A DNA stretch of 64,000 bases from an uncultured Chloroflexia bacterium (GTDB lineage: Bacteria; Chloroflexota; Limnocylindria; Limnocylindrales; CSP1-4), in NCBI GenBank assembly GCA_963778025.1, contig CAVZTA010000011.1, forward strand, positions 80,452 to 144,451, read 5' to 3'. Positions 11,594 to 53,633 of this stretch are shown piece by piece. Position 1 is the first letter of the stretch. Every line of letters begins with the position of its first letter. The translations under genes and the position numbers were made by a program. Under the pieces are notes generated by a model. The model saw only the letters and a program-made list of their open reading frames with translations, had not been told where the DNA came from and searched no databases.

Positions 11594-12762
11594 AGCGTCA
11601 CCTCGTGACCTGCGAGCAGCAGGCGACCGAGGCGCAGCGCGTCGCGCAGCTCCGCGGCCTCGTCGCCGGCCCCGGGTCCGACGGTGGTCTCGAGCTTCGC
11701 GATCCGCCCCTCGAGGTCGCGGATGAACGCCCCGGCGATGGTGTCGGGCCCGGGCAGCATGCCGTCCGTGAGTGGTGGGCGCGACGCATCCCGCACGCGC
11801 ACCCGCAGGAACGACGGACGCAACGCCGCCTCGACCTCATCGGGATGCACATCGAGCTCGTCGGGCCGCACGCCGATGAGCCGGACGTCCAGCACGACAT
11901 CCGCGTCGGCCCGCGCTTGGAGCCGCTCGATGACCGCAGGCTGACTCTCGATCACCGACGCATCGAGGTCGATGCGCTCGAACCGCGTCCGACCGACCCG
12001 CCGCTCCTCGATGTCGACCGTGCGCCGCCCATCCGCCTCGTCGAGCGTCACGAGCAGCACGTTGCCGGCGCGGTCCTGGTCGACGGCGACCGGCTCCGGG
12101 GCGCCGCTGTACGCCCACGTGACGCCGCCGGCGCGCGCCGTCTGCGCCGCGTGCCAGTGCCCAAGCGCGACGTAATCGAGGCCGCTCGCGGCGATCTCCT
12201 GGGTGGTGATCACGACGTCATCGCCGTCGGTCCGGCCCGGGATGGCGACGGCGGCATGGAACAGCCCGACCTTCCAGCGGCCCGGCAGTCCATCGGCCAT
12301 GCCGGCGTCGCGCAACGGCCCGAACGGCGCCCGTTTCGTCGGGAACGGCCGGCCCACGATCGAGACGTCGCATGTCGCGATGAACGTGCTCGGCTGCTCC
12401 GGTGTCAGGACCACCACCATGCCGGCGTCCCGCGGCGCCGCCATCGACGGCAGGTCGTACGCGCGATAGACCGAGGCCCGGTCGTAGACATCGTGCGTGC
12501 CCGGCGTGATCACCGTGCGGATGCGGCGCTCGACGAGCCGGCGCAGCTCGGCGGCCACCCGCTCCACCGAACGCCGGGGCTGGACGTTCGAGTCGAACAG
12601 GTCGCCCGCGATCAGGACGACGTCGACCAATTCGGCGAGCGCGACGTCGATGGTCCGGACGAACGCGGCGAACTGCCGCTCCCGCTGCGCGATGGCCGCC
12701 TCGCCCAGATCCGCGTGACGCGCGCCCAGGTGGACGTCTGCCGTATGGAGCAATCGAAGCAT
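11590..12762 (-). CDS. SbcD/Mre11-like (YhaO-type) metallophosphoesterase nuclease
   Basis: Start ATG 12762 (MLRLLHTADVHLG). Phosphoesterase motifs DVHLG, GDLFD, GTHD, GHWH. The track ORF runs to 13254 but that extension is not protein-like. Confidence 0.8.
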   Translation of the reverse strand: MLRLLHTADVHLGARHADLGEAAIAQRERQFAAFVRTIDVALAELVDVVLIAGDLFDSNVQPRRSVERVAAELRRLVERRIRTVITPGTHDVYDRASVYRAYDLPSMAAPRDAGMVVVLTPEQPSTFIATCDVSIVGRPFPTKRAPFGPLRDAGMADGLPGRWKVGLFHAAVAIPGRTDGDDVVITTQEIAASGLDYVALGHWHAAQTARAGGVTWAYSGAPEPVAVDQDRAGNVLLVTLDEADGRRTVDIEERRVGRTRFERIDLDASVIESQPAVIERLQARADADVVLDVRLIGVRPDELDVHPDEVEAALRPSFLRVRVRDASRPPLTDGMLPGPDTIAGAFIRDLEGRIAKLETTVGPGAGDEAAELRDALRLGRLLLAGHEVTL

Positions 12763-13799: not shown

Positions 13800-13971
13800 G
13801 ATGCATCGGATGCACGCTACGACGAACCACCCGCGCGGTGCCCGGCCCCGGACCCGCGGCAGGCCTCTTCCGACGTCGTTCCATGCATCGGGCGCGTCAT
13901 CCGGCGGCGGAGACCGCCGGACCTAGCCGCACCCTGGCCGCCTCCTTCGACGCAAGCGGCACCCGATGCAC
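13800..13971 (-). repeat. ~170-bp TIR-bounded intergenic element, copy 1 (reverse orientation)
   Basis: The reverse complement starts GTGCATCGGGTGCCGCTTGCGTCGAAGGAGGCGG and ends TTCGTCGTAGCGTGCATCCGATGCAT. Same ends and length as the copies at 41075 and 53435. Confidence 0.8.
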
Positions 13972-14010: not shown

Positions 14011-14736
14011 TCAGATCCGGAACGCGTCGCCCTTGCGATAGCGCTCCCGGCGCCGACCCCGCCACACGGTGACGCGCCCACGGCCCTGGACCTGCCACGC
14101 GCCGTTGCAGCCGATCGCCGCCGTCTCCTCGTCGATGCCCAGCACCGCATCGCCGCGCGGCGCCTGCAGGGCGATGAGGGCGACGAGCGCCTCCGGCCAC
14201 GCGTCGTAGTGCGGCAGCACGGCCGCTGACTCGACCAGTCCCAGCGCCGACCGCCACCTGATCGGGAACGGCACCTTCTGGCGCGGCATCTCGGCCTGGC
14301 AGCCGGCCAGCACCATCGCCCCAGCGGAGCAGCCCGCGATGACCGCGCCGCGTGCATGGGCGGCACGCAGCGCCTCTCCCAGCGGCGACCCCTGCAGCAC
14401 ACCCAGCAGATGCGATGGCTTGCCGCCCGACAGGTAGATCAGGTCCGCCTCGCCGACCGCCTGGAGGTTCGCGGCGTCATGGCCATCGTCGGCCGTGCGG
14501 ACCATGACCGGCTCCACCTCGGCGCCAAGCGCCGTGAAATGCTCGACGCCCATCGCCGCCCAACGCTGGAACGTGGCGGCGCCGTCGGGCCACGACGCCG
14601 TCGGCAGGATGGCCACACGTGGCCGCGCAACGCCGGTCGCATCGAGCAGGCCGCGGTCGACCGTGTCCCATCGCAGCAAGGAACTCGCCGGCGCCCACCA
14701 GCGCGACCGATCCGGGCACGGCCGAAGTCTATGCAT
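14011..14736 (-). CDS. peptidase S51 / class I glutamine-amidotransferase-like protein
   Basis: ORF 14011..14775. Motifs RVAILPTAS, LIYLSGGKPSHLL, GAVIAGCSAGAMVL. Start uncertain (ATG 14736 or TTG 14679). Confidence 0.6.
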   Translation of the reverse strand: MHRLRPCPDRSRWWAPASSLLRWDTVDRGLLDATGVARPRVAILPTASWPDGAATFQRWAAMGVEHFTALGAEVEPVMVRTADDGHDAANLQAVGEADLIYLSGGKPSHLLGVLQGSPLGEALRAAHARGAVIAGCSAGAMVLAGCQAEMPRQKVPFPIRWRSALGLVESAAVLPHYDAWPEALVALIALQAPRGDAVLGIDEETAAIGCNGAWQVQGRGRVTVWRGRRRERYRKGDAFRI

Positions 14737-14795
14737 CCGGCGCATCGATGCCGTGCCGGACGACCGCGACGACATGCGACACTCGCCTGCTCCCG

Positions 14796-17143: not shown

Positions 17144-17931
17144 GCGACGTCATCCTGCTCCCGTACCACCAGGACGAGCGCCTCGACGACGCGGCGATCG
17201 TGCTGCCTTCCGAGCGTCGAGGCGACGCTGGTCGACCCGCCGCTGCCGGTCGCCGACTCGCAGTGGCCGCGGCTCGTCGCGTTGTATGCGGAGCTGGCCT
17301 CGGCGGTGGCGGCAGGGCTCCGCGGCGGCGGGCTGCGCGCGGTCGTGGTCGGCGACTGCCTGGCGTCGCTCGGGACACTTGGCCGGGCTGCAGCGGGCGG
17401 GCCACGACCCATCGATCGTCTGGTTCGACGCGCACGGCGACATCCACACGATCGCGTCGTCGACCTCGCAGTACCTGGGCGGGATGCCGCTGCGGATGAT
17501 GATCGGGGGCGACCCGGACAGGCTCACCGGGCCCGCTCGGGATCCGGACGCTGGCCGAGGATCGGGCTGTCCTGGTCGATGCGCGGGACCTCGACCCCGG
17601 CGAGGTCGAGTTCCTGGCGACGAGTCGCGTCCGGCGATCGTCCGTGGACGAGCTCACCGCCGCCGATCTGCCGCCCGGCCCGGTGCTCATCCACATCGAC
17701 CTCGACGTCATCGACGCAGCCGAGGTCCCGGGGATGCGCTTCCCGGTCGGCCACGGCCCCAGCTCCGACGCGGTCCTCGCGGCGGTCGCCCGCCTCTACG
17801 CCACCGGCCGGGTCGTGTTGCTCAGCCTCTCCTGCCCGTGGTACCGAACCGACGACGAGCAGCTGGCTCGCCAGCGGACGGCCCTGATCGAGCGGTTCCT
17901 GGCCGTCGCATCGGTGTCGTTGCGCGCCTGA
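17140..17931 (+). pseudogene. arginase/agmatinase/formiminoglutamase-family gene with three +1 frame switches (~17200, ~17380, ~17525)
   Basis: Four collinear pieces in successive frames: MSDVILLPYHQDERL...; VEATLVDPPLPVADSQWPRLVALYAELA...VVVGDCLASLGTL; AGLQRAGHDPSIVWFDAHGDIHT...GGMPLRMMIGGDP; LGIRTLAEDRAVLVDARDLD...VLIHIDLDVIDAAEVPG. The Mn-binding motifs DAHGD and DLDVID are present. Confidence 0.75.
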
Positions 17932-18125
17932 AGGTCAGCCACGGTGCTGACGACGTCGCTGTTCGCCGCAATCGAACAGATTCGGTCCGGATCAGCCCGT
18001 TCGAGGCCTCGAGAGGCGCTTCACGACCTTCTGTTAGTCCCGCACGACGAATTCGCGGCTGAACACGCCCTCACCTCAGCCCAAACGGCTGAAATCCGTT
18101 CGCGACAACCGACCATCCCGCGCAC
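17841..18125 (+). repeat. diverged direct repeat, copy 1 (3' end of the arginase-like gene plus ~195 bp downstream)
   Basis: Aligns with 18791-19074, roughly three quarters identical by eye, with small indels (+2, -3, -1). Near-identical blocks: GTTCGCCGCAATCGAACAGATTCG, GCTTCACGACCTYCTGTTAGTC, CCGTTCGCGACA. Confidence 0.8.
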
Positions 18126-18138
18126 CCGGAGCTCGGCG

Positions 18139-18600
18139 TCAGGACGATGGCGCGAGCCTGCTGCACGCCAGCTCATCGATGTACCCGACCCCACGACCGA
18201 CCCTCGACACTTCGTTGGTTTCGGTGTTGAGCTCCCAGTGACCGATCCAACCGGTGCCGTCCGGCCCCACGTTGGTCGACCGGCCTGACAACGATCCGTA
18301 CAGCACGCCATCGCGCTCGAAGAACCGGATGAGCCCCGTGTCGATGTATGTCCAGCTATCCCCGTCGGCGTTCGAGTACACCCAGGTCAGGTGGTAGAAC
18401 GTGGGATGGCTGGCGTCGAACGCGCCCCTCGCCCAGCCAGTCGTATGGAACGTCAGCGACGCCCCATCGCAATCGACGTCTCCGCTGAAGTCGATGATCG
18501 AGACCCGGTCTCCCGGCGGCGCAGCGCTCGCCGTCGGAACGGCTCCGAGGAGTCCGACGAGGACGACGACACCAACCACCAGCACTCTGAACCGACGCAT
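18139..18600 (-). CDS. secreted hypothetical protein
   Basis: Signal peptide MRRFRVLVVGVVVLVGLLGAVPTASA. No recognised domain. Visibly lower GC than the flanks. Lies between the two direct-repeat copies. Confidence 0.6.
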   Translation of the reverse strand: MRRFRVLVVGVVVLVGLLGAVPTASAAPPGDRVSIIDFSGDVDCDGASLTFHTTGWARGAFDASHPTFYHLTWVYSNADGDSWTYIDTGLIRFFERDGVLYGSLSGRSTNVGPDGTGWIGHWELNTETNEVSRVGRGVGYIDELACSRLAPSS

Positions 18601-18790
18601 GGCCTCACCTCTCGGACGATCGCGCGGGACGGTCTCGCCAGTGGCTCGCCGCGGTCCGGGCGGCCGGCATGTGGGCCGCGGGTCAACGCCTCGCGCCGAT
18701 ACGCAGCCGTCAGGCTACTTCAGCTGCGTCAGGACCACGTCTCGGCCCTGGGGGACACGGCAGGTGTACCAACCCGATCGTCCGCCGGAG

Positions 18791-19074
18791 GTATCGAACT
18801 GACGACGCCTGCACCGTGGTCGCGAGCGGACGATCCTGATCGAGCGGTTCTTGACGGTCGCCTCGGCGTCGCTGCGCGCCCGAGGCTAACCACGGTCCAC
18901 GACGTCGCCGTTCGCCGCAATCGAACAGATTCGATGGGAATCAGCCCGTCAGTTGCCTTTCGAGGTGCTTCACGACCTCCTGTTAGTCGCCCACGACGAA
19001 TCCGCGGCTCATCGCGCGCTCACTACCGGTCAGACGGCTGGATCCGTTCGCGACATCCAACCATTCCGGTCGCG
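18791..19074 (+). repeat. diverged direct repeat, copy 2 (includes a relic of an arginase-family C-terminus)
   Basis: Encodes the relic ...RTILIERFLTVASASLRARG* matching ...RTALIERFLAVASVSLRA* of copy 1, followed by the same conserved downstream blocks. Confidence 0.8.
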
Positions 19075-24859: not shown

Positions 24860-26761
<1,902 letters not shown>

Positions 26762-26770
26762 GATCGATCG

Positions 26771-28130
26771 CTACCGAGACGCGGCGATGGCCGCCGCGAG
26801 CGCCTCGTCGTCCGCTGGCTCGACGGTCCGGAGATCCAGCACCACGCGCCCGTCTTCGATCCGCCCGACGACCGGCGGCGTCCCGGTCCGCAGGCGCCGA
26901 AGCCGGGCGTCCGCCGACCCCGCTCCGCCGAGCGCGAGCCCGACCGACGGCAACGTCTCGCCCGGCAGCGATCCGCCACCCACCGTCGCCCGGGTGTCGA
27001 CCACGTCGATGGCCTCGCCGGCGCCGACGCGTGTCCCGAGCGCGACGGCCCGCGCGCGGAGCACATCGACCGGCGTCGACAGCTGCCGCCACACCGGGAT
27101 CTCCCGTGCCGCGACGCCCGCCCGGTACAGCCCCAGGGTCGCCGCGATCGCCGCGAGCATCGCCTTGTCCGGCCGCATCGCCCGCGCCAGCGGGTCCTTG
27201 CGAAGCCGCGCGACCAGCTCGCCGCGGCCGACGATGAACCCGGCCTGCGGACCTCCGACCAGCTTGTCGCCGCTGAACGTCACGAGGTCCGCGCCGTCGG
27301 CGAGGCGCTCCGCGGGCGTCGGCTCGTGCGCCAGGCCGAACGCGGCAGTGTCCAGCAGCGCCCCGCTGCCCAGGTCGTCGACCACCAGCGCGCCGTGCTC
27401 ATGCGCCAGCCGCGCGAGCGACGGCGGATCCGGCGCCTCCACGAACCCATCGAGCCGGAAGTTCGACGGGTGGACCCGCAGCACCAGTCGAGCCCGCCCA
27501 TCGGCCAGCGGCTCCGCGAAGTCGGCGACGCGCGTCCGGTTCGTCGTCCCGACCTCGATCAGCTTCGCGCCGGCGCGGCGGACGATCTCGGGGATCCGCA
27601 CACCCGCCGCCGATCTCGACCAGCTCCCCGCGGCTGACCGCGATCCCGCCGCGACCCGCCAGCCCGCAGGCGAGCGCCACGGCCGCCGCGTTGTTCGTCA
27701 CGATGAGCGCGTCCTCGGCCCCGGTCAGCGCGATGAGGTGCTCCTCCGCGAGGCGGAAGCGGCGGCCTCGCCGTCCCGTGGCCGGGTCCAGCTCGAGGAA
27801 CGACGTCCCGGCCGCGGCCGCGGCGGCCGCCTCGATCGCCGCCCGGGGCCACGCGGCTCGGCCGAGATTCGTGTGGATCAGGACGCCGGTGGCGTTGATC
27901 ACGCGCGTCAGACCGGCTGCCGACTCGAACGCGCCCAGCCGTGCGACGACGAGCGCGCCAACGCTTCGACCGACGACGCGGGCGCGCCCGCGGCGAGTCG
28001 CGGCACGCTCCTCGTCGACGACGGCCCGGGCCACGGCCAGCACCGCGCCGGGATCCCGCTCGCCGAGGGACGGCCGCGCGGCCGCCAGCACCCGTTCGAC
28101 GGACGGCGGCCGCGACGCCAGCGTGGTCAT
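26771..28130 (-). pseudogene. selA: L-seryl-tRNA(Sec) selenium transferase SelA, one +1 frame switch (27602)
   Basis: N-part is in ORF 27399..28277 from ATG 28130 (MTTLASRPPSVERVL...VINATGVLIHTNLGRA...VSRGELVEIGGG). C-part is in ORF 26771..27601 (RIPEIVRRAGAKLIEVGTTNRT...FSGDKLVGGPQAG). One extra base lies between GGG and GTG CGG ATC. Confidence 0.9.
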
Positions 28131-28145
28131 CGATCCTCCGTGGAC

Positions 28146-28242
28146 TGGCGGGAGCGCATGGGAGTCGAACCCACCGCGCGACGCCGAGCGCCGCGCCACC
28201 GGTGTTGAAGACCGGGGAGCCCACCGGGACCCCTCCGCTCCC
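28146..28242 (-). tRNA. selC: tRNA-Sec (anticodon UCA), CCA encoded
   Basis: 97 nt: GGGAGCGG...CGCTCCCGCCA. Anticodon arm CCGGT-CUUCAAC-ACCGG gives U33-UCA-A37. 6-bp D-stem, long variable arm (GCGCG...CGCGC), T-loop GGGTTCGACTCCC. Acceptor has 7 Watson-Crick pairs plus a mismatched 8th. Confidence 0.9.
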
Positions 28243-38726: not shown

Positions 38727-40703
38727 ATGCCGAAGGAATATCTCCGGCTGACCACGCCGCTCGTCCGCGACGGCGACCGCCGCACCGGTGTCCTGCGCCC
38801 AGCCAGCTGGGACGAGGCGCTGGATCGCGCGGCGGACGGCTTGCGGGCGGCGGGTGTGCAGCACGGAGCCCGGACGTACGGGGTCTTCAGCTGTTCGAAG
38901 GCGACGAACGAGGTGAACTTCGCCGCACAGAAGTTCAGTCGCGTCGTCCTCGGCAGCAACAACATCGACAGCTGCAACCGCACCTGACACGCCCCCTCTG
39001 TCGCCGGTCTGGCGACCGTGTTCGGCGCTGGCGGCGGGACCAGCTCATATCGAGAGGCTGAGGAGACGGATCTCGTCCTCCTGTGGGGCAGCAATGCCCG
39101 GGAGACGCACCCGATCTTCTTCCACCACCTCCTGAAGGGGGTGCGTCGGGGTGCCCGGCTGGTGGCCATCGATCCCCGGCGGACCAGCAGCGCCGAGTGG
39201 GCCGACCTGTGGCTCGGCCTCGACGTGGGCTCCGACATCGCCATGGCCAACGCGATGGGCCGCGAGATCATCCACGCCGGCCTCGCGAACGAGGACTTCA
39301 TCGCCCGGGCGACGACGGACTTCGAGAAGTACCGCCAGACCGTCGAGCCGTACACGCTCGAGTACGCCGAGCGCGAGACCGGCGTGCCGGCCGACGCGAT
39401 CCGCGAGGCTGCGCACGCGTACGCGAACGCCGACCGGGCGATGATCTGCTGGACCCTCGGCATCACCGAGCACCACAACGCCGTCGACAACGTCCTCGCG
39501 CTGATCTCGCTGGCCCTGTTGACCGGGCACGTCGGCAAGTACGGCTCCGGCATCAACCCGCTGCGCGGCCAGAACAACGTCCAGGGCGGCGGCGACATGG
39601 GCGCCCTGCCCGACCGCCTGCCGGGCTTCCAGCACGTGGAGAACGACGCCCTCCGCGAGCGCTGCGAGCAGCTCTGGCGGTGCGTGGTCCCGCCCAAGAA
39701 GGGCTGGCACCTGTCGGGCATGTTCGAGGCGATGGACCGCGGCGAGCTGACCGCGCTCTACGTCATCGGTGAGAACCCGCTGCAGTCCGAGGCCGACCGT
39801 CACTTGACGGAGCGACGCCTTCGCAGCCTCGACGTGCTCATCGTCCAGGACCTGTTCCTCACCGCCACCGCCGAGATCGCCGACGTCGTGTTCCCGGCCT
39901 CGGCCGCGTGGGCCGAGGCGGAAGGGACCGTCACCAACTCCGAGCGGCGGGTCCAGCGGGTGCGCAAGGCGCTGGAGCCGCCCGGCGAGGCGCGCGACGA
40001 CCTGTGGATCATCTTCGAGCTCGCGAAGCGCCTGGGTCACGATTGGGGCGAGGCCGACGCCGAACGGGTGTGGGACGAGGTGCGCGCCGTCTCCCCGGTC
40101 CATCGCGGCATGAGCTATCAGCGTCTCGAGGCCCTGGGCGGCCTCCAGTGGCCGTGCTATGACGAGGACCACCCGGGCGAGCTGTTCCTCCACAGCCGTC
40201 TGTACGAGGACCCGATGCCCGGCAACCGGGTCCCGTTCGTGCCCGTGGAGCACGATCCGCCGGTGGACAAGCTCACCCCGGACTTCCCGATCCGGCTGAC
40301 CACCGGGCGCCGCCTGGACTCGTACAACACGGGCGTGCAGTCGGGGAGCTATCGCTCACCCATGCGCCGTGGCGAGTCGCTGGACCTCTCCCCCGAGGAC
40401 ATGGCGTCGATGGGTCTCGCCGAGGGCGAACGGGTGTGCGTCATCTCGCGCCGGGGACAGGTGGAGGTCCCGGTGCGCACCGACGAGAGCCTGCGACCCG
40501 GCCTCGCGTTCATGACGCTCCACTTCCAGGACGACGTCGCGACCAACATCCTCACCATCGACGCGACGGATCCCAAGTCGGGCACGGCGGAGTTCAAGGC
40601 GACGGCGATCCGGGTCGAGCGGCTGCCGAACGAGCGCGACGAGCCGGCACGTCTCGTCGCCGCGGCCGCCGAGGGCGCCGAAGCGGTGGGTCCCGCCGGG
40701 TGA
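38727..40703 (+). CDS. fdhA: formate dehydrogenase catalytic (Mo/W-bisPGD) subunit, selenocysteine-containing (UGA at 38985-38987)
   Basis: ATG 38727 behind AGGAGGA. Track ORFs 38628..38987 and 39018..40703 are in the same frame, separated only by one TGA. Context NIDSCNRT-U-HAPSVAGL matches the FDH Sec/Cys active-site loop. A SECIS hairpin follows. MopB and C-terminal beta-barrel domains are present. The N-terminal Fe-S modules are absent here. Confidence 0.9.
38985..39020 (+). promoter_or_regulatory. UGA(Sec) codon plus bacterial SECIS stem-loop
   Basis: UGA CACG-ccccctct-GUCGCC-GGUCU-GGCGAC-CGUG. Perfect 6-bp upper stem (39000-39005 / 39011-39016) with a GGUCU apical loop and a 4-bp lower stem. 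As recalled, the same position and loop type as the E. coli fdhF SECIS. Confidence 0.8.
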
Positions 40704-40708
40704 CGTTC

Positions 40709-41056
40709 ATGCGCCGGCTGTTCGGGGACAGCTGGGGCGAGGACGGGTCCGCCGCCGACGATCGCGCGCTGGCGGAGCTCGTCGCGTCCGGCGTGGACGT
40801 CAGCGTGCCGGTCCCCGTCGACTTCAAGCTCACGTTCCGCGACGAGCGCGCGGCCCGCCAGACCGTCGCGCAGCTCGCGGGTCTGGGCGGCGACCTCCGC
40901 ATCGGCGCGACCGGCGGCTTCGAGCCGCGCTGGCTCGTGCGGTTGACGCTACCGATGGCCATCACGCCCGAACGCCTGGCGGCGATGCGCTCGCGGCTCG
41001 AGGAGCTCGCCTCGGAGCGAGACGGTCGCTACGAGGGCTGGGACGCGTCGGGCTGA
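40709..41056 (+). CDS. RraB-like (regulator of ribonuclease activity B family) protein
   Basis: Frame of ORF 40436..41056. ATG 40709, or GTG 40700 overlapping the fdhA stop (GTGA). C-terminus ...ERDGRYEGWDASG resembles the family GG-YDGW ending. Confidence 0.5.
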   Translation: MRRLFGDSWGEDGSAADDRALAELVASGVDVSVPVPVDFKLTFRDERAARQTVAQLAGLGGDLRIGATGGFEPRWLVRLTLPMAITPERLAAMRSRLEELASERDGRYEGWDASG

Positions 41057-41074: not shown

Positions 41075-41244
41075 GATGCACCGGGTGCGCCTAACGACGA
41101 AGGGAGCCTCCTGCAGCGGCCCCGATCCAGTCGCGCGGTGCCGGGTCGTGCATCCGGTGCGCCGATCGGCGCTGCAATGGTCGTCCGGGCGCCCAGGTGG
41201 CGTGATCGGCGCGGCTCGTTCGTCGTAGCGCGCATCGGGTGCAC
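41075..41244 (+). repeat. ~170-bp TIR-bounded intergenic element, copy 2
   Basis: Starts GATGCACCGGGTGCGCCTAACGACGAAGGGAG and ends TTCGTCGTAGCGCGCATCGGGTGCAC. Lies inside the FDH gene cluster. Confidence 0.8.
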
Positions 41245-41326: not shown

Positions 41327-43225
<1,899 letters not shown>

Positions 43226-43229
<4 letters not shown>

Positions 43230-44302
43230 GCCTCGACGTCATCTTCACGACGCCCCCCGCGCGGCCGACGAAGCCACCCGAGCCGCCGCCCCCGCCGGAG
43301 GTGCCGCAGGTCGAGCTCAGCATCGACGGCGTCACCGTCTCGGTGCCCCAGGGAACGACGATCCTGCAGGCCGCGCGCGCCCAGGGCATCGACACCCCGA
43401 CGCTCTGCTACCTCGAGAACCTCACGCCGGTCAACGTCTGCCGCGTGTGCGTCGTCGAGGTCACCGGCTCGCGCGTGCTCGTGCCCGCGTGCTCACGCAG
43501 GGTCGAGCCCGGGATGGAGGTCAAGACCGACTCGGAGCGGGTCCGGACATCGCGCAAGGTCGTGCTGGAGCTCCTGGGCTCGTCGGTCGACCTGTCGCTC
43601 GCCGGGCCGGCGCAGCCGAACGGCGACCTCGAGCGCTATCAGCAGCACTACGGCGCCGACGCCGCCCGGTTCGGGCAGCCGGGCGAGGTCCACGCGAGCG
43701 GCGAGCGCGATGCGCGCGTCGCCGGCCATCACCACGCGGCCGAGGGCGCGCCCGTCGCCGAGACCGTCGCCCAGCCCGTGAAGGTCGACAACGAGCTCTA
43801 CGTCCGGGACTACGCGCGCTGCATCCTCTGCTACAAGTGCGTCGAGGCATGCGGCGAAGACGCCCAGAACACCTTCGCCATCGCGGTCGCGGGCCGTGGC
43901 TTCGACGCCCGCATCTCGACCGAGTTCGATGTCGGCCTGCCCGAGAGCGCGTGCGTGTACTGCGGCAACTGCATCGGTGCCTGCCCCACGGGCGCGCTGA
44001 TGTTCAAGTCGGAGCACGACATGCGCGACGCGGGGACCTGGGATGAGACCCGCCAGGACCGCACGGACACCATCTGCCCGTACTGCGGCGTCGGCTGCGT
44101 GCTGGAGTTGCACACGCAGGACGACCGGATCGTGAAGGTGACCTCGCCGCTGGACTCGTCGGTCACGCACGGACACCTGTGCGTGAAGGGCCGGTTCGGC
44201 TTCGAGTTCGTCCAGCTCCGCCCGAAGGGCGACGCCACGTTCCGGGAGAGCCAGCATCGCGATCCCGGGGATGCACCTGCGATGCCGGGCGCGACTGGCT
44301 GA
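43226..44302 (+). CDS. NuoG-like Fe-S subunit: the N-terminal module of FDH alpha (2Fe-2S, 4Fe-4S x3, MopB 4Fe-4S domain) as a separate polypeptide
   Basis: GTG 43226 overlaps the upstream stop (GTGA). Motifs [46 protein letters not shown]...[14 protein letters not shown]. The ORF stops about 25 residues after the last motif. Confidence 0.85.
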
Positions 44303-52177: not shown

Positions 52178-52585
52178 CGAACGTGCCTCCTGTCTGCCTG
52201 GACGCCGCGTCGGGACGCGACGAACGAGGTCGGGATCCGGGTCGCGGATCGCGGGCTTGGCCGCTCGAGACACGGGACGGGGAGGCGGCGACGGTCGCGA
52301 CGAACGCGACGAGCATCGACGGCAGCGAGGATGGGAGACGGGCCGATGGGGCCGACGGCGTGTCAGTGGGCGCTGATGCGCAGCGTGCCGGGGAGCGGCG
52401 GTCTTCGGTTGGGCCTTGCTGCGGATGACGGGCGACGCGCCGAGGATGACACGCGCGGCGACGCGCTCGCATCCCGCTAATGGACCACCGGCGAGGTGAC
52501 CGGATAGGCCGGTGCAGGCACGCACCCCCACTCGCCGAAGGGCGCCTCGGAACCGTTGGCTCCACGATGGCCGTATCCTCGGGAG

Positions 52586-53372
52586 ATGGGTCGTCTCCGC
52601 GTCGCGCTGCTCCTCGCCGGCGCCCTCGCGCTGCTGCCGGTGCCCGCGGCCGCGGCGGCCACGCCCGGGTCCGGCACCTCCGGCACGGAGTCGACGGACG
52701 TCGTCCGCCCGTTCTCGCTGGTGCTCGGCCAGCGCGCCGACTTCGTGCCGCAGGCGAACTTCGTCCAGTGCGTCGGGGCGAGCATGCAGATGATGATCAA
52801 CATGATCGAGCCGGGACGCGACCGGTCGTCGGGTACCCAGCGGCGGCTCCAGAACCTCGCCCGCTCGTGGAGCGGCCCTCGGCCCGCCGGCTTCCAGCGC
52901 AAGGGCGCGAGCGTGGACGGCTGGGCGACGGGGCTCACGCTCATGGGCGTCGGGCCGTACAAGCTGGTCGGGACCACCTCGCTCCAGGGGGCGCTTCGCA
53001 CGGCCGCCAAGGCGATCCGTGAGACCGGCAAGCCGGTCGGGCTGTTGGTGTGGCGCGGACGGCACGCGTGGGTCATGAGCGGCTTCACCGCGACCGCCGA
53101 CCCGCTCACCGCTTCGTCGTTCACGGTCACCGGCGTGAACGTGCACGACCCGCTGTACCCGTACGGCTCGTCGGTGTGGGGACGCGAGCCCGAGCCCGGG
53201 GGAGCGGCTCACGCCGTCCGAGGTGGGCCGGCAGTTCAAGCCACGCCGGTCCAACGGCTCGGCGGCGATCTTCGCGCGGCTGGACCCGTGGTCGACCCTG
53301 CGCGGCAAGTACGTGCTGGTCCTGCCGTACGAGCCGCGACCCATCGGCGACTGGGCGGCCCGCTACCGCTGA
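52586..53372 (+). pseudogene. secreted hypothetical protein, one +1 frame switch (~53182)
   Basis: Signal MGRLRVALLLAGALALLPVPAAAAA. The body is in ORF 52556..53524 up to ...YPYGSSVWG. A protein-like continuation ASPSPGERLTPSEVGRQFKPRRSNGSAAIFARLDPWSTLRGKYVLVLPYEP...* is in frame 0, ending at TGA 53370-53372. Start ATG 52586 or TTG 52556. Confidence 0.55.
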
Positions 53373-53434: not shown

Positions 53435-53603
53435 GTGCATCGGGTGCGGCTTGCGACGAAGGAGGCGCCCGAGCTGATGCCTCGAGGCCTCCATGGCGGG
53501 CCCACCGCCACCTTCGGACGCTGAACGATGCACGGGATGCCACATCCGTCGTCGGCGAGGCGATCGCGCAGGTCCGCTTCGTCGCAGCGCGCATCGGGTG
53601 CAC
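53435..53603 (+). repeat. ~170-bp TIR-bounded intergenic element, copy 3
   Basis: Starts GTGCATCGGGTGCGGCTTGCGACGAAGGAGGCGCC and ends TTCGTCGCAGCGCGCATCGGGTGCAC. The termini can pair over about 27 nt. Confidence 0.8.
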
Positions 53604-53611
53604 ACCGGCCG

Positions 53612-53633
53612 GGCGAGGCGAGGCGAGGCGAGG
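53612..53633. repeat. pentanucleotide microsatellite (GGCGA)x4
   Basis: ggcga ggcga ggcga ggcga gg, directly 3' of repeat copy 3 and about 60 nt upstream of the TfoX-like gene. Confidence 0.9.

Follow-up and report, generated by a model that had tools for sequence, protein, structure and literature searches.

The window, by which we mean the whole 64,000-nt stretch of DNA analysed here, has a G+C content of 72% and contains a family of three non-coding intergenic elements of about 170 bp whose ends can pair with each other. The elements are repeated, capable of forming hairpins, gained or lost and tandemly amplified among close relatives, and placed in the sense orientation after genes. Based on the three sites examined, we consider that they probably, on balance, represent a new and lineage-specific family of palindromic intergenic repeats that resembles REP dimers or REPINs. 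A preliminary description made from the sequence had given positions, orientations and sizes for the three copies (172, 170 and 169 bp), and these were recovered at 172, 169–170 and 169 nt (Table 1).

Table 1. Coordinates of the three elements, of the genes upstream of them and of the segments that distinguish occupied from empty alleles.
Feature	Position in window	Strand	Length	Details
Copy 1	13800..13971	-	172 nt	5' block 13941-13971; internal core 13885-13895; 3' block 13801-13826
Copy 2	41075..41244	+	169-170 nt	5' block 41076-41106; internal core 41150-41160; 3' block 41219-41244
Copy 3	53435..53603	+	169 nt	5' block 53435-53465; internal core 53530-53540; 3' block 53578-53603
Peptidase_S51 gene	14011..14775	-		Upstream of copy 1, same orientation
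RraB-like gene	40709..41056	+	115 aa	Immediately upstream of copy 2
Secreted-looking protein gene	52556..53372	+		Upstream of copy 3, same orientation
Segment missing from L014	13776..14009	-	234 nt	38 nt + copy 1 + 25 nt, from the alignment
Intergenic stretch with about 258 extra nt relative to L018/L019	53373..53653	+		Copy 3 plus about 89 nt of non-conserved flanks; borders ambiguous

What the copies share is confined to their ends, a 5' block of about 31 nt and a 3' block of about 26 nt, between which lies an interior of about 115 nt. The 3' block (TTCGTCGYAGCGYGCATCSGRTGCAY) is matched exactly three times in the window, against none expected from 100 dinucleotide-preserving shuffles, while the 31-nt 5' block is matched by copies 1 and 3 at no more than three mismatches (again with none expected). 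Copy 2 has the most diverged 5' block, with seven mismatches, in agreement with the earlier remark that this copy differs most at its start. The interiors are of similar length and nearly unalignable in sequence: similarity among the three copies gave alignment z-scores of 0.8–2.7 against shuffles, compared with 8–10 for the whole elements. That the interiors are not conserved, and that each holds a third core-like motif (the internal core in Table 1), had both been stated beforehand, and both observations held. In copies 1 and 3 the 5' block carries a perfect AAGGAGG at its inner edge; no conserved start codon follows it, and six-frame translations revealed no conserved peptide. We also considered a small open reading frame, since each of the three copies keeps an open frame, in the same register, between the internal RTGCAY and the 3'-block TAG; it was rejected as a coding gene because the peptides are unrelated and no conserved start follows AAGGAGG.

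The ends had been portrayed as imperfect reverse complements. They do pair, but the core itself, the quasi-palindrome GCATCGGGTGC, occurs as a direct repeat at both element ends, and the genuine inverted repeat consists mainly of TGCGACGAAG and CTTCGTCGCA, together with GTGCA/TGCAC and TGCG/CGCA. In its degenerate form (GCAYCSGRTGC), the core was found eight times in the window against 0.5 expected, with seven of the eight occurrences inside the three elements and the eighth at 12759. Neither of the solo cores previously placed at ~14725 and ~22866 matches it. A consensus that is truly palindromic, concentrated inside the elements and present as three sites per element would suit a module that acts at the DNA level, as would the location of two copies upstream of genes. 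The sites (GTGCA-N5-TGCAC-like) would then be bound by a dimeric nucleoid protein or a regulator, or would be the invertase sites of an inverton with a promoter in its interior; known invertible promoter segments are similar to these elements in size and inverted-repeat length. However, the cores at the two ends are direct rather than inverted, with central bases that vary from end to end and from strain to strain; no gene downstream of copy 1 shares its orientation, and the window showed no solo site upstream of a gene. Inversion in particular is at odds with the three to five strain assemblies available per site, all of which are colinear with no inverted allele at the assembly level, and with the lack of a recombinase gene in the window and of promoter-like hexamers in the interior. 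We therefore regard a DNA-level module of either kind as highly improbable.

Each of the three copies begins 18–62 nt past a stop codon and is oriented like the gene upstream of it, and the gene pairs around the copies are unidirectional in two cases and convergent in one. Copy 1, the convergent case, starts 39 nt after the stop codon of the Peptidase_S51 gene and faces the end of a zf_Tbcl gene. Copy 2 starts 18 nt past the RraB-like stop codon, and 83 nt separate its end from the start of a nuoE-like gene (41327). It had been assigned to the gap between the two halves of a split formate dehydrogenase (FDH) alpha subunit, and the molybdopterin part (38727-40703) and the Fe-S part (42992-44302) do lie on either side of it, but its immediate neighbours differ from that account, being the RraB-like gene before it and the nuoE-like gene after it. 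Copy 3 starts 62 nt after the stop codon at 53372 and ends 88 nt before the start of a TfoX_N gene; the shift of reading frame within its upstream gene is probably an assembly error. The copies and their surroundings showed neither a sigma-70-like promoter nor an intrinsic terminator. Likewise, Pfam detected no transposase or recombinase domain among the scanned open reading frames of the window or among the genes precomputed for the orthologous contigs, which upholds, for the scanned frames, the earlier statement that the window holds no transposase.

The surroundings of copy 3 also show minor variation. A (GGCGA)4 microsatellite directly follows the copy (window 53612-53632), and strain L003 carries a 13-nt duplication polymorphism just 5' of it (L003 2720-2745). 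A gene call in the same strain (1885-2952, with a 355-aa product) reads through the element, showing that copy 3 causes spurious extension of open reading frames in this high-GC genome.

We compared the three sites among related contigs, which were found by exact look-up of short conserved window proteins and by two homolog searches. In strain-level relatives, whose identity to the window is about 93–99%, the copies recur at their sites: L009 and L013 have copy 1; L016, L017, L022 and L023 have copy 2; and L003 and L004 have copy 3. Relatives of the contig_N type, L010, L012, L016 and L017 among them, show many indels relative to the window and fragmented gene calls and are probably error-prone long-read assemblies, in which single-base differences between strains are unreliable. 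Apparent frameshifts in nuoE/F (41327-43229), in the secreted-protein gene (52556-53372) and in mgtE (834-2207) are typical of residual long-read errors.

The site of copy 1 presents an allelic series of zero, one or two tandem copies. Two copies with a period of 225 nt occur in L010 and L011, where the 170-nt element is repeated together with about 27 nt of DNA from either flank; the two copies of L012 are decayed. Between tandem copies, identity was 89–93% in the blocks, 72% in the interiors and about 70% in the flanks (the last estimated by eye), and the higher identity of the blocks suggests that they are constrained or homogenised. The single copy 1, both in the window and in L009, is a mosaic of the two tandem types. 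An empty allele is found in L014, with a spacer of 137 nt against 383 nt in the window, and the segment that it lacks (Table 1) is close in size to the tandem period of L010 and L011.

Empty alleles at the site of copy 3 were found in L018 and L019, which have the same flanking genes and a spacer of 60 nt against 318 nt here; in both, the ortholog of the secreted-protein gene directly abuts TfoX_N. At the site of copy 2, contigs L006, L007 and L008 are without the segment 40669-41311, that is, without both the RraB-like gene and the element, with the FDH gene of L006 being 91% identical to that of the window; toxin-antitoxin or other genes occupy the FDH-nuoE slot in L007 and L008. The idea that copy 2 belongs to a gene cassette was set aside, as the RraB-like gene was seen solely in this one context. 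Between the FDH molybdopterin gene and nuoE lies a variable island, with homology resuming about 15 nt before the nuoE start codon and with PIN/PhdYeFM toxin-antitoxin, HTH_3, Na_Ca_ex or acetyltransferase genes as the cargo of relatives. The nearest outgroup contigs have no element at any of the three sites. The three outgroup contigs may all belong to a single lineage, in which case what reads as three independent gains could equally be losses within it. A scan with R1, a covariance model that we built from ten copies and alleles, found no further copies in about 70 kb of the more distant relatives (L006–L008 and L018–L021).

Insertion polymorphism, which the preliminary description had proposed to look for, is thus seen as presence and absence between relatives. 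The target-site duplications sought with it are not visible at the two sites where an empty allele exists, and no direct repeat flanks any copy. These results bear on whether the elements are classical MITEs, that is, internally deleted insertion sequences whose terminal inverted repeats (TIRs) of about 27 nt would be bound by a transposase encoded elsewhere, and which move by cut-and-paste with duplication of the target site. The MITE/Correia-like interpretation offered at the outset holds insofar as the elements are a non-coding repeat family with pairing termini; their TIRs, length of about 170 bp and lack of coding capacity fall within the usual MITE range (TIRs of 15–30 bp, total length of 70–300 bp). 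Presence/absence polymorphism at orthologous sites agrees with it as well, as do the differences between left and right ends, which are kept in all copies as in many IS ends. However, besides the missing duplication, the indels relative to the empty alleles measure 234–260 nt (234 nt at the first site and ~258 nt at the third), and not 170 nt plus a short duplication; they exceed the conserved part, and their borders miss the conserved blocks. The interiors are essentially unrelated, which is unexpected for copies of one master element since MITEs are similar over their whole length, and the extra copy at the first site is a tandem reiteration that includes the flanks. Neither a transposase nor an insertion sequence is present in the window, and the gene calls of the orthologous contigs contain no transposase.

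Among bacterial MITEs, Correia/NEMIS, ERIC, RUP and YPAL elements are likewise 100–170 bp long and intergenic, with TIRs of about 26 nt, insertion polymorphism between strains, and co-transcription into long RNA hairpins (co-transcription of the present elements being our deduction from their placement). Those families are conserved over their whole length, and Correia and RUP have defined target duplications, whereas the elements described here have unrelated interiors, no duplication and an indel larger than the conserved part. The features of REP dimers and REPINs (PMC3733652) fit better than those of an IS-derived MITE, and we consider a classical MITE origin distinctly unlikely.

The folding of the elements was predicted on both strands. 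Free energies for the whole elements were -111.4, -109.9 and -97.0 kcal/mol, with z-scores of -3.7, -4.0 and -3.2 against shuffles; although hairpins are cheap in this window because of its 72% G+C, each element still folds better than its shuffled versions. The duplex of the 5' and 3' blocks alone accounted for -31 to -44 kcal/mol. In all three copies the sense strand folded better than the antisense strand (-111/-85, -110/-93 and -97/-93 kcal/mol) and had the better z-score. The R1 model separated the strands further, with sense/antisense scores of 178/25 bits for copy 1, 139/34 for copy 2 and 132/45 for copy 3, and with overall ranges of 110–178 bits on the sense strand and 19–48 bits on the antisense strand. 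Across the 14 copies or alleles aligned to the model, all of which keep the terminal helix, 93.8% of the cells in its 23 pairs are paired. Thirteen of these pairs are invariant, five vary on a single side and one on both; at two positions the series UA/UG/CG and GC/GU/AU are observed. Two stem positions hold an invariant G-U pair, and several G-U pairs form only on the strand of the upstream gene. The strand pattern would be compatible with selection on a single-stranded sense form, whether RNA or single-stranded DNA. The stem pattern mostly reflects conservation, with little covariation, in an alignment that was itself fitted to R1. Hairpins in the interior are not conserved, even from strain to strain. 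Two additional pairings were tried and dropped: a riboswitch-like pairing between the internal motif and the 3' block, which was no better than shuffled in four of five copies (copy 2 being the exception), and an extension of the stem into the flanks, which do pair, but with z-scores of only -0.7 to -1.9.

A structured RNA had been the second option in the preliminary description, with covariation as its check; the stem recurs in every copy, but covariation across it is thin. Under this explanation, the elements would be a functional RNA family that benefits the host as a stabiliser in 3' UTRs or between cistrons, as a processing signal or as a small RNA gene, and the closing stem and internal motif would be the selected features. 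Several observations speak for it, namely the strand asymmetry of both folding and R1 scores, the G-U pairs, the two stem positions with compatible changes, the sense placement of 3/3 copies just after a gene, the retention of the blocks in old tandem duplicates while the rest diverged, and the perfect AAGGAGG in the 5' block of copies 1 and 3. On the other hand, the elements are absent from all three orthologous sites in the nearest relatives, most of the stem pairs show no change with only a single pair altered on both sides, the structure of the interior is not conserved, and the internal motif pairs with the 3' block no better than shuffled sequence in nearly every copy. Promoter-like and terminator-like sites are also missing, and so is any Rfam match at E<=10. 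Rfam 15 at its gathering threshold returned solely tRNA-Sec and a c-di-GMP-II riboswitch for the whole window, and at E<=10 it gave noise matches alone for copies 2 and 3, so that the elements match no described Rfam family, a point that had been set as a check. A host-beneficial structured RNA is, in our assessment, an unlikely explanation of the family.

REP-dimer or REPIN-like repeats account for more of these features. REP units are described as palindromes of 20–40 bp with stems mostly of 6–13 bp and an unpaired GTAG or CGTC tag at one end, and REP dimers as pairs of oppositely oriented short units able to form a single large stem-loop (PMC3733652). REPINs are the same arrangement under a different name, two inverted REPs plus a spacer, and are thought to be mobilised by RAYT transposases (PMC3337134; Bertels & Rainey 2011, PMC3116915). 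The present elements are alike in having two short inverted units around a spacer, with 5' and 3' ends that pair into one long hairpin. CGTC/GTAG tags, here partly conserved, lie next to the body of the unit, and the spacers are similar in length and different in sequence, as in REP dimers with the tags inside (TT), whose spacers tend to vary in sequence and to be alike in length (PMC3733652). REP dimers and REPINs are dispersed between genes in many copies per genome, and the window has three in 64 kb. REPs are found mainly downstream of open reading frames, between unidirectional or convergent genes, and the frequent G-T pairs in their stems suggest a role in RNA (PMC3733652); the intergenic placement of the present copies and the G-T pairs of their stem conform to both. 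Further likenesses are tandem reiteration together with flanking DNA, the lack of a target-site duplication, and restriction of families to a species (PMC3733652). GTAG REPs also occur in Chloroflexi, where they are inserted in small GC-rich palindromes (PMC3733652).

The units deviate from this pattern in detail. Each is about 26 nt long, and its own palindrome (GTGCA/TGCAC-like) has a stem of 3–5 bp and a loop of 5 nt, compared with the 6–13 bp that prevail in REPs. CGTC is present in five of the six units and GTAG in two of the three 3' units, with GCAG or GCAA/GTTA in the others; the tags read TT-CGTC-GTAG-C in the 3' unit and, once the 5' unit is reverse-complemented, CGTC-GCAA there, and the CGTC tag is paired, not unpaired, in the long hairpin. 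Membership in the REP-dimer/REPIN group thus falls short of proof because the unit palindrome spans only 3–5 bp and the tags are partly conserved. The spacer is also slightly longer here (115 nt against the usual 20–100 nt) and carries a third degenerate unit, and the host is an uncultured soil bacterium with 72% GC; distant TfoX homologs bear the names Chloroflexota and Candidatus Limnocylindrales, a hint at the first of these as its phylum.

In a REP-dimer arrangement, each element would consist of two inverted units of about 27 nt with the form TTCGTCG-YAR-S-CGCA-YCSGR-TGCAC, their CGTC/GTAG-like tags facing inward, which would make it what Di Nocera et al. call a 'tail-to-tail' (TT) dimer. 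The units would flank the ~115-nt spacer, similar in length and free in sequence, with the third degenerate unit within it, and the end units are computed to pair into an imperfect stem of about 25 bp when single-stranded. The elements are probably not encoded functions of their neighbouring genes. Rather, they may have been gained in a species-level lineage downstream of stop codons, possibly by entering small GC-rich palindromes; tandem reiteration, unequal recombination and gene conversion would afterwards have raised or lowered their number locally. Spread to further sites would require a trans-acting enzyme encoded outside the window. The known precedent for such mobilisation is RAYT, a tyrosine transposase of the IS200-IS605 type, which is flanked by the same units, is usually single-copy and may lie elsewhere in the genome. 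As the elements sit in 3' UTRs or between cistrons in the sense orientation, they are probably co-transcribed, and stable hairpins in the RNA might protect or process the upstream mRNA.

The conserved AAGGAGG and the persistence of the blocks in old tandem duplicates hint at selection. We give a slim chance to a further possibility with two forms, either a modular, hairpin-forming mobile unit of ~230–260 nt or a new class of 3'-UTR RNA element that spread in the same way and was kept by selection. Such a modular unit might be recognised through three short blocks, capture or tolerate any spacer, and insert directly after stop codons by a mechanism other than RAYT.

Integron attC sites also resemble the elements at first sight: their conserved ends are imperfectly inverted, their centre is variable, their folding is strand-specific, and they lie immediately 3' of a gene whose orientation they share. 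The gene before copy 2, moreover, is small cargo in a variable slot. Unlike attC sites, the elements lack the RYYYAAC/GTTRRRY core, their ends being GTGCATCGGG... and ...GGGTGCAC. Moreover, there is no array and, from the Pfam scans, no integrase; the copies lie 12–27 kb apart among housekeeping genes, and relatives without the element still have the Peptidase_S51 and secreted-protein genes.

Outside the occupied sites, searches for additional copies returned background. In the window, R1 detected no fourth copy, with the next-best matches at <=21 bits and in coding sequence, leaving exactly three; weak matches in two relatives (L012:415-514 and L021:14383-14503) were dismissed as noise within coding sequence. 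Exact-pattern scans for the 3' block in GTDB species genomes and JGI metagenomes gave chance matches inside genes (L001, L002 and L005), two scans of IMG/VR gave no match, and blastn against plasmids gave short chance matches alone. A six-frame profile of the block peptides, meant to pick up spurious open reading frames across other copies, returned nothing at E<=10 among proteins, but with 142 columns it has too few bits per block to be informative. The lack of a true match in GTDB, JGI, IMG/VR and plasmids would indicate a narrow distribution of the kind typical for REP families.

To our knowledge, repeats of the REP/REPIN type are well known in Proteobacteria and barely described in high-GC uncultured soil lineages. 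The family is a known kind of bacterial "junk-or-regulatory" DNA and nothing unprecedented. With its allelic series of zero, one or two copies it would be useful as a strain marker, as a source of assembly breaks and false gene calls (gene callers read through copy 3 in related contigs), and as a test case for the spread of repeats in the absence of a known RAYT. Copy 2 leaves the interpretation of the selenocysteine formate dehydrogenase genes beside it unchanged and marks a variable cargo slot in that cluster.

Several features elsewhere in the window merit mention in their own right. The c-di-GMP-II-GAG riboswitch (65 bits, 18618-18702, minus strand) lies directly upstream of a gene for a 153-aa secreted-looking protein (18139-18600, minus strand). 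Beside it is a duplication of ~230 nt (17859-18091 and 18811-19040, 81% identity) that covers the 3' end of a gene and downstream sequence, and no second copy of the riboswitch was found. The window also encodes a complete selenocysteine set, with SelB at 24860-26761, SelA at 26771-27601 and tRNA-Sec at 28150-28242, all on the minus strand. The FDH molybdopterin subunit is read as two open reading frames split by an in-frame TGA (38985-38987), and the FDH of relatives is split in the same manner, into parts of 86 aa and ~541–561 aa.
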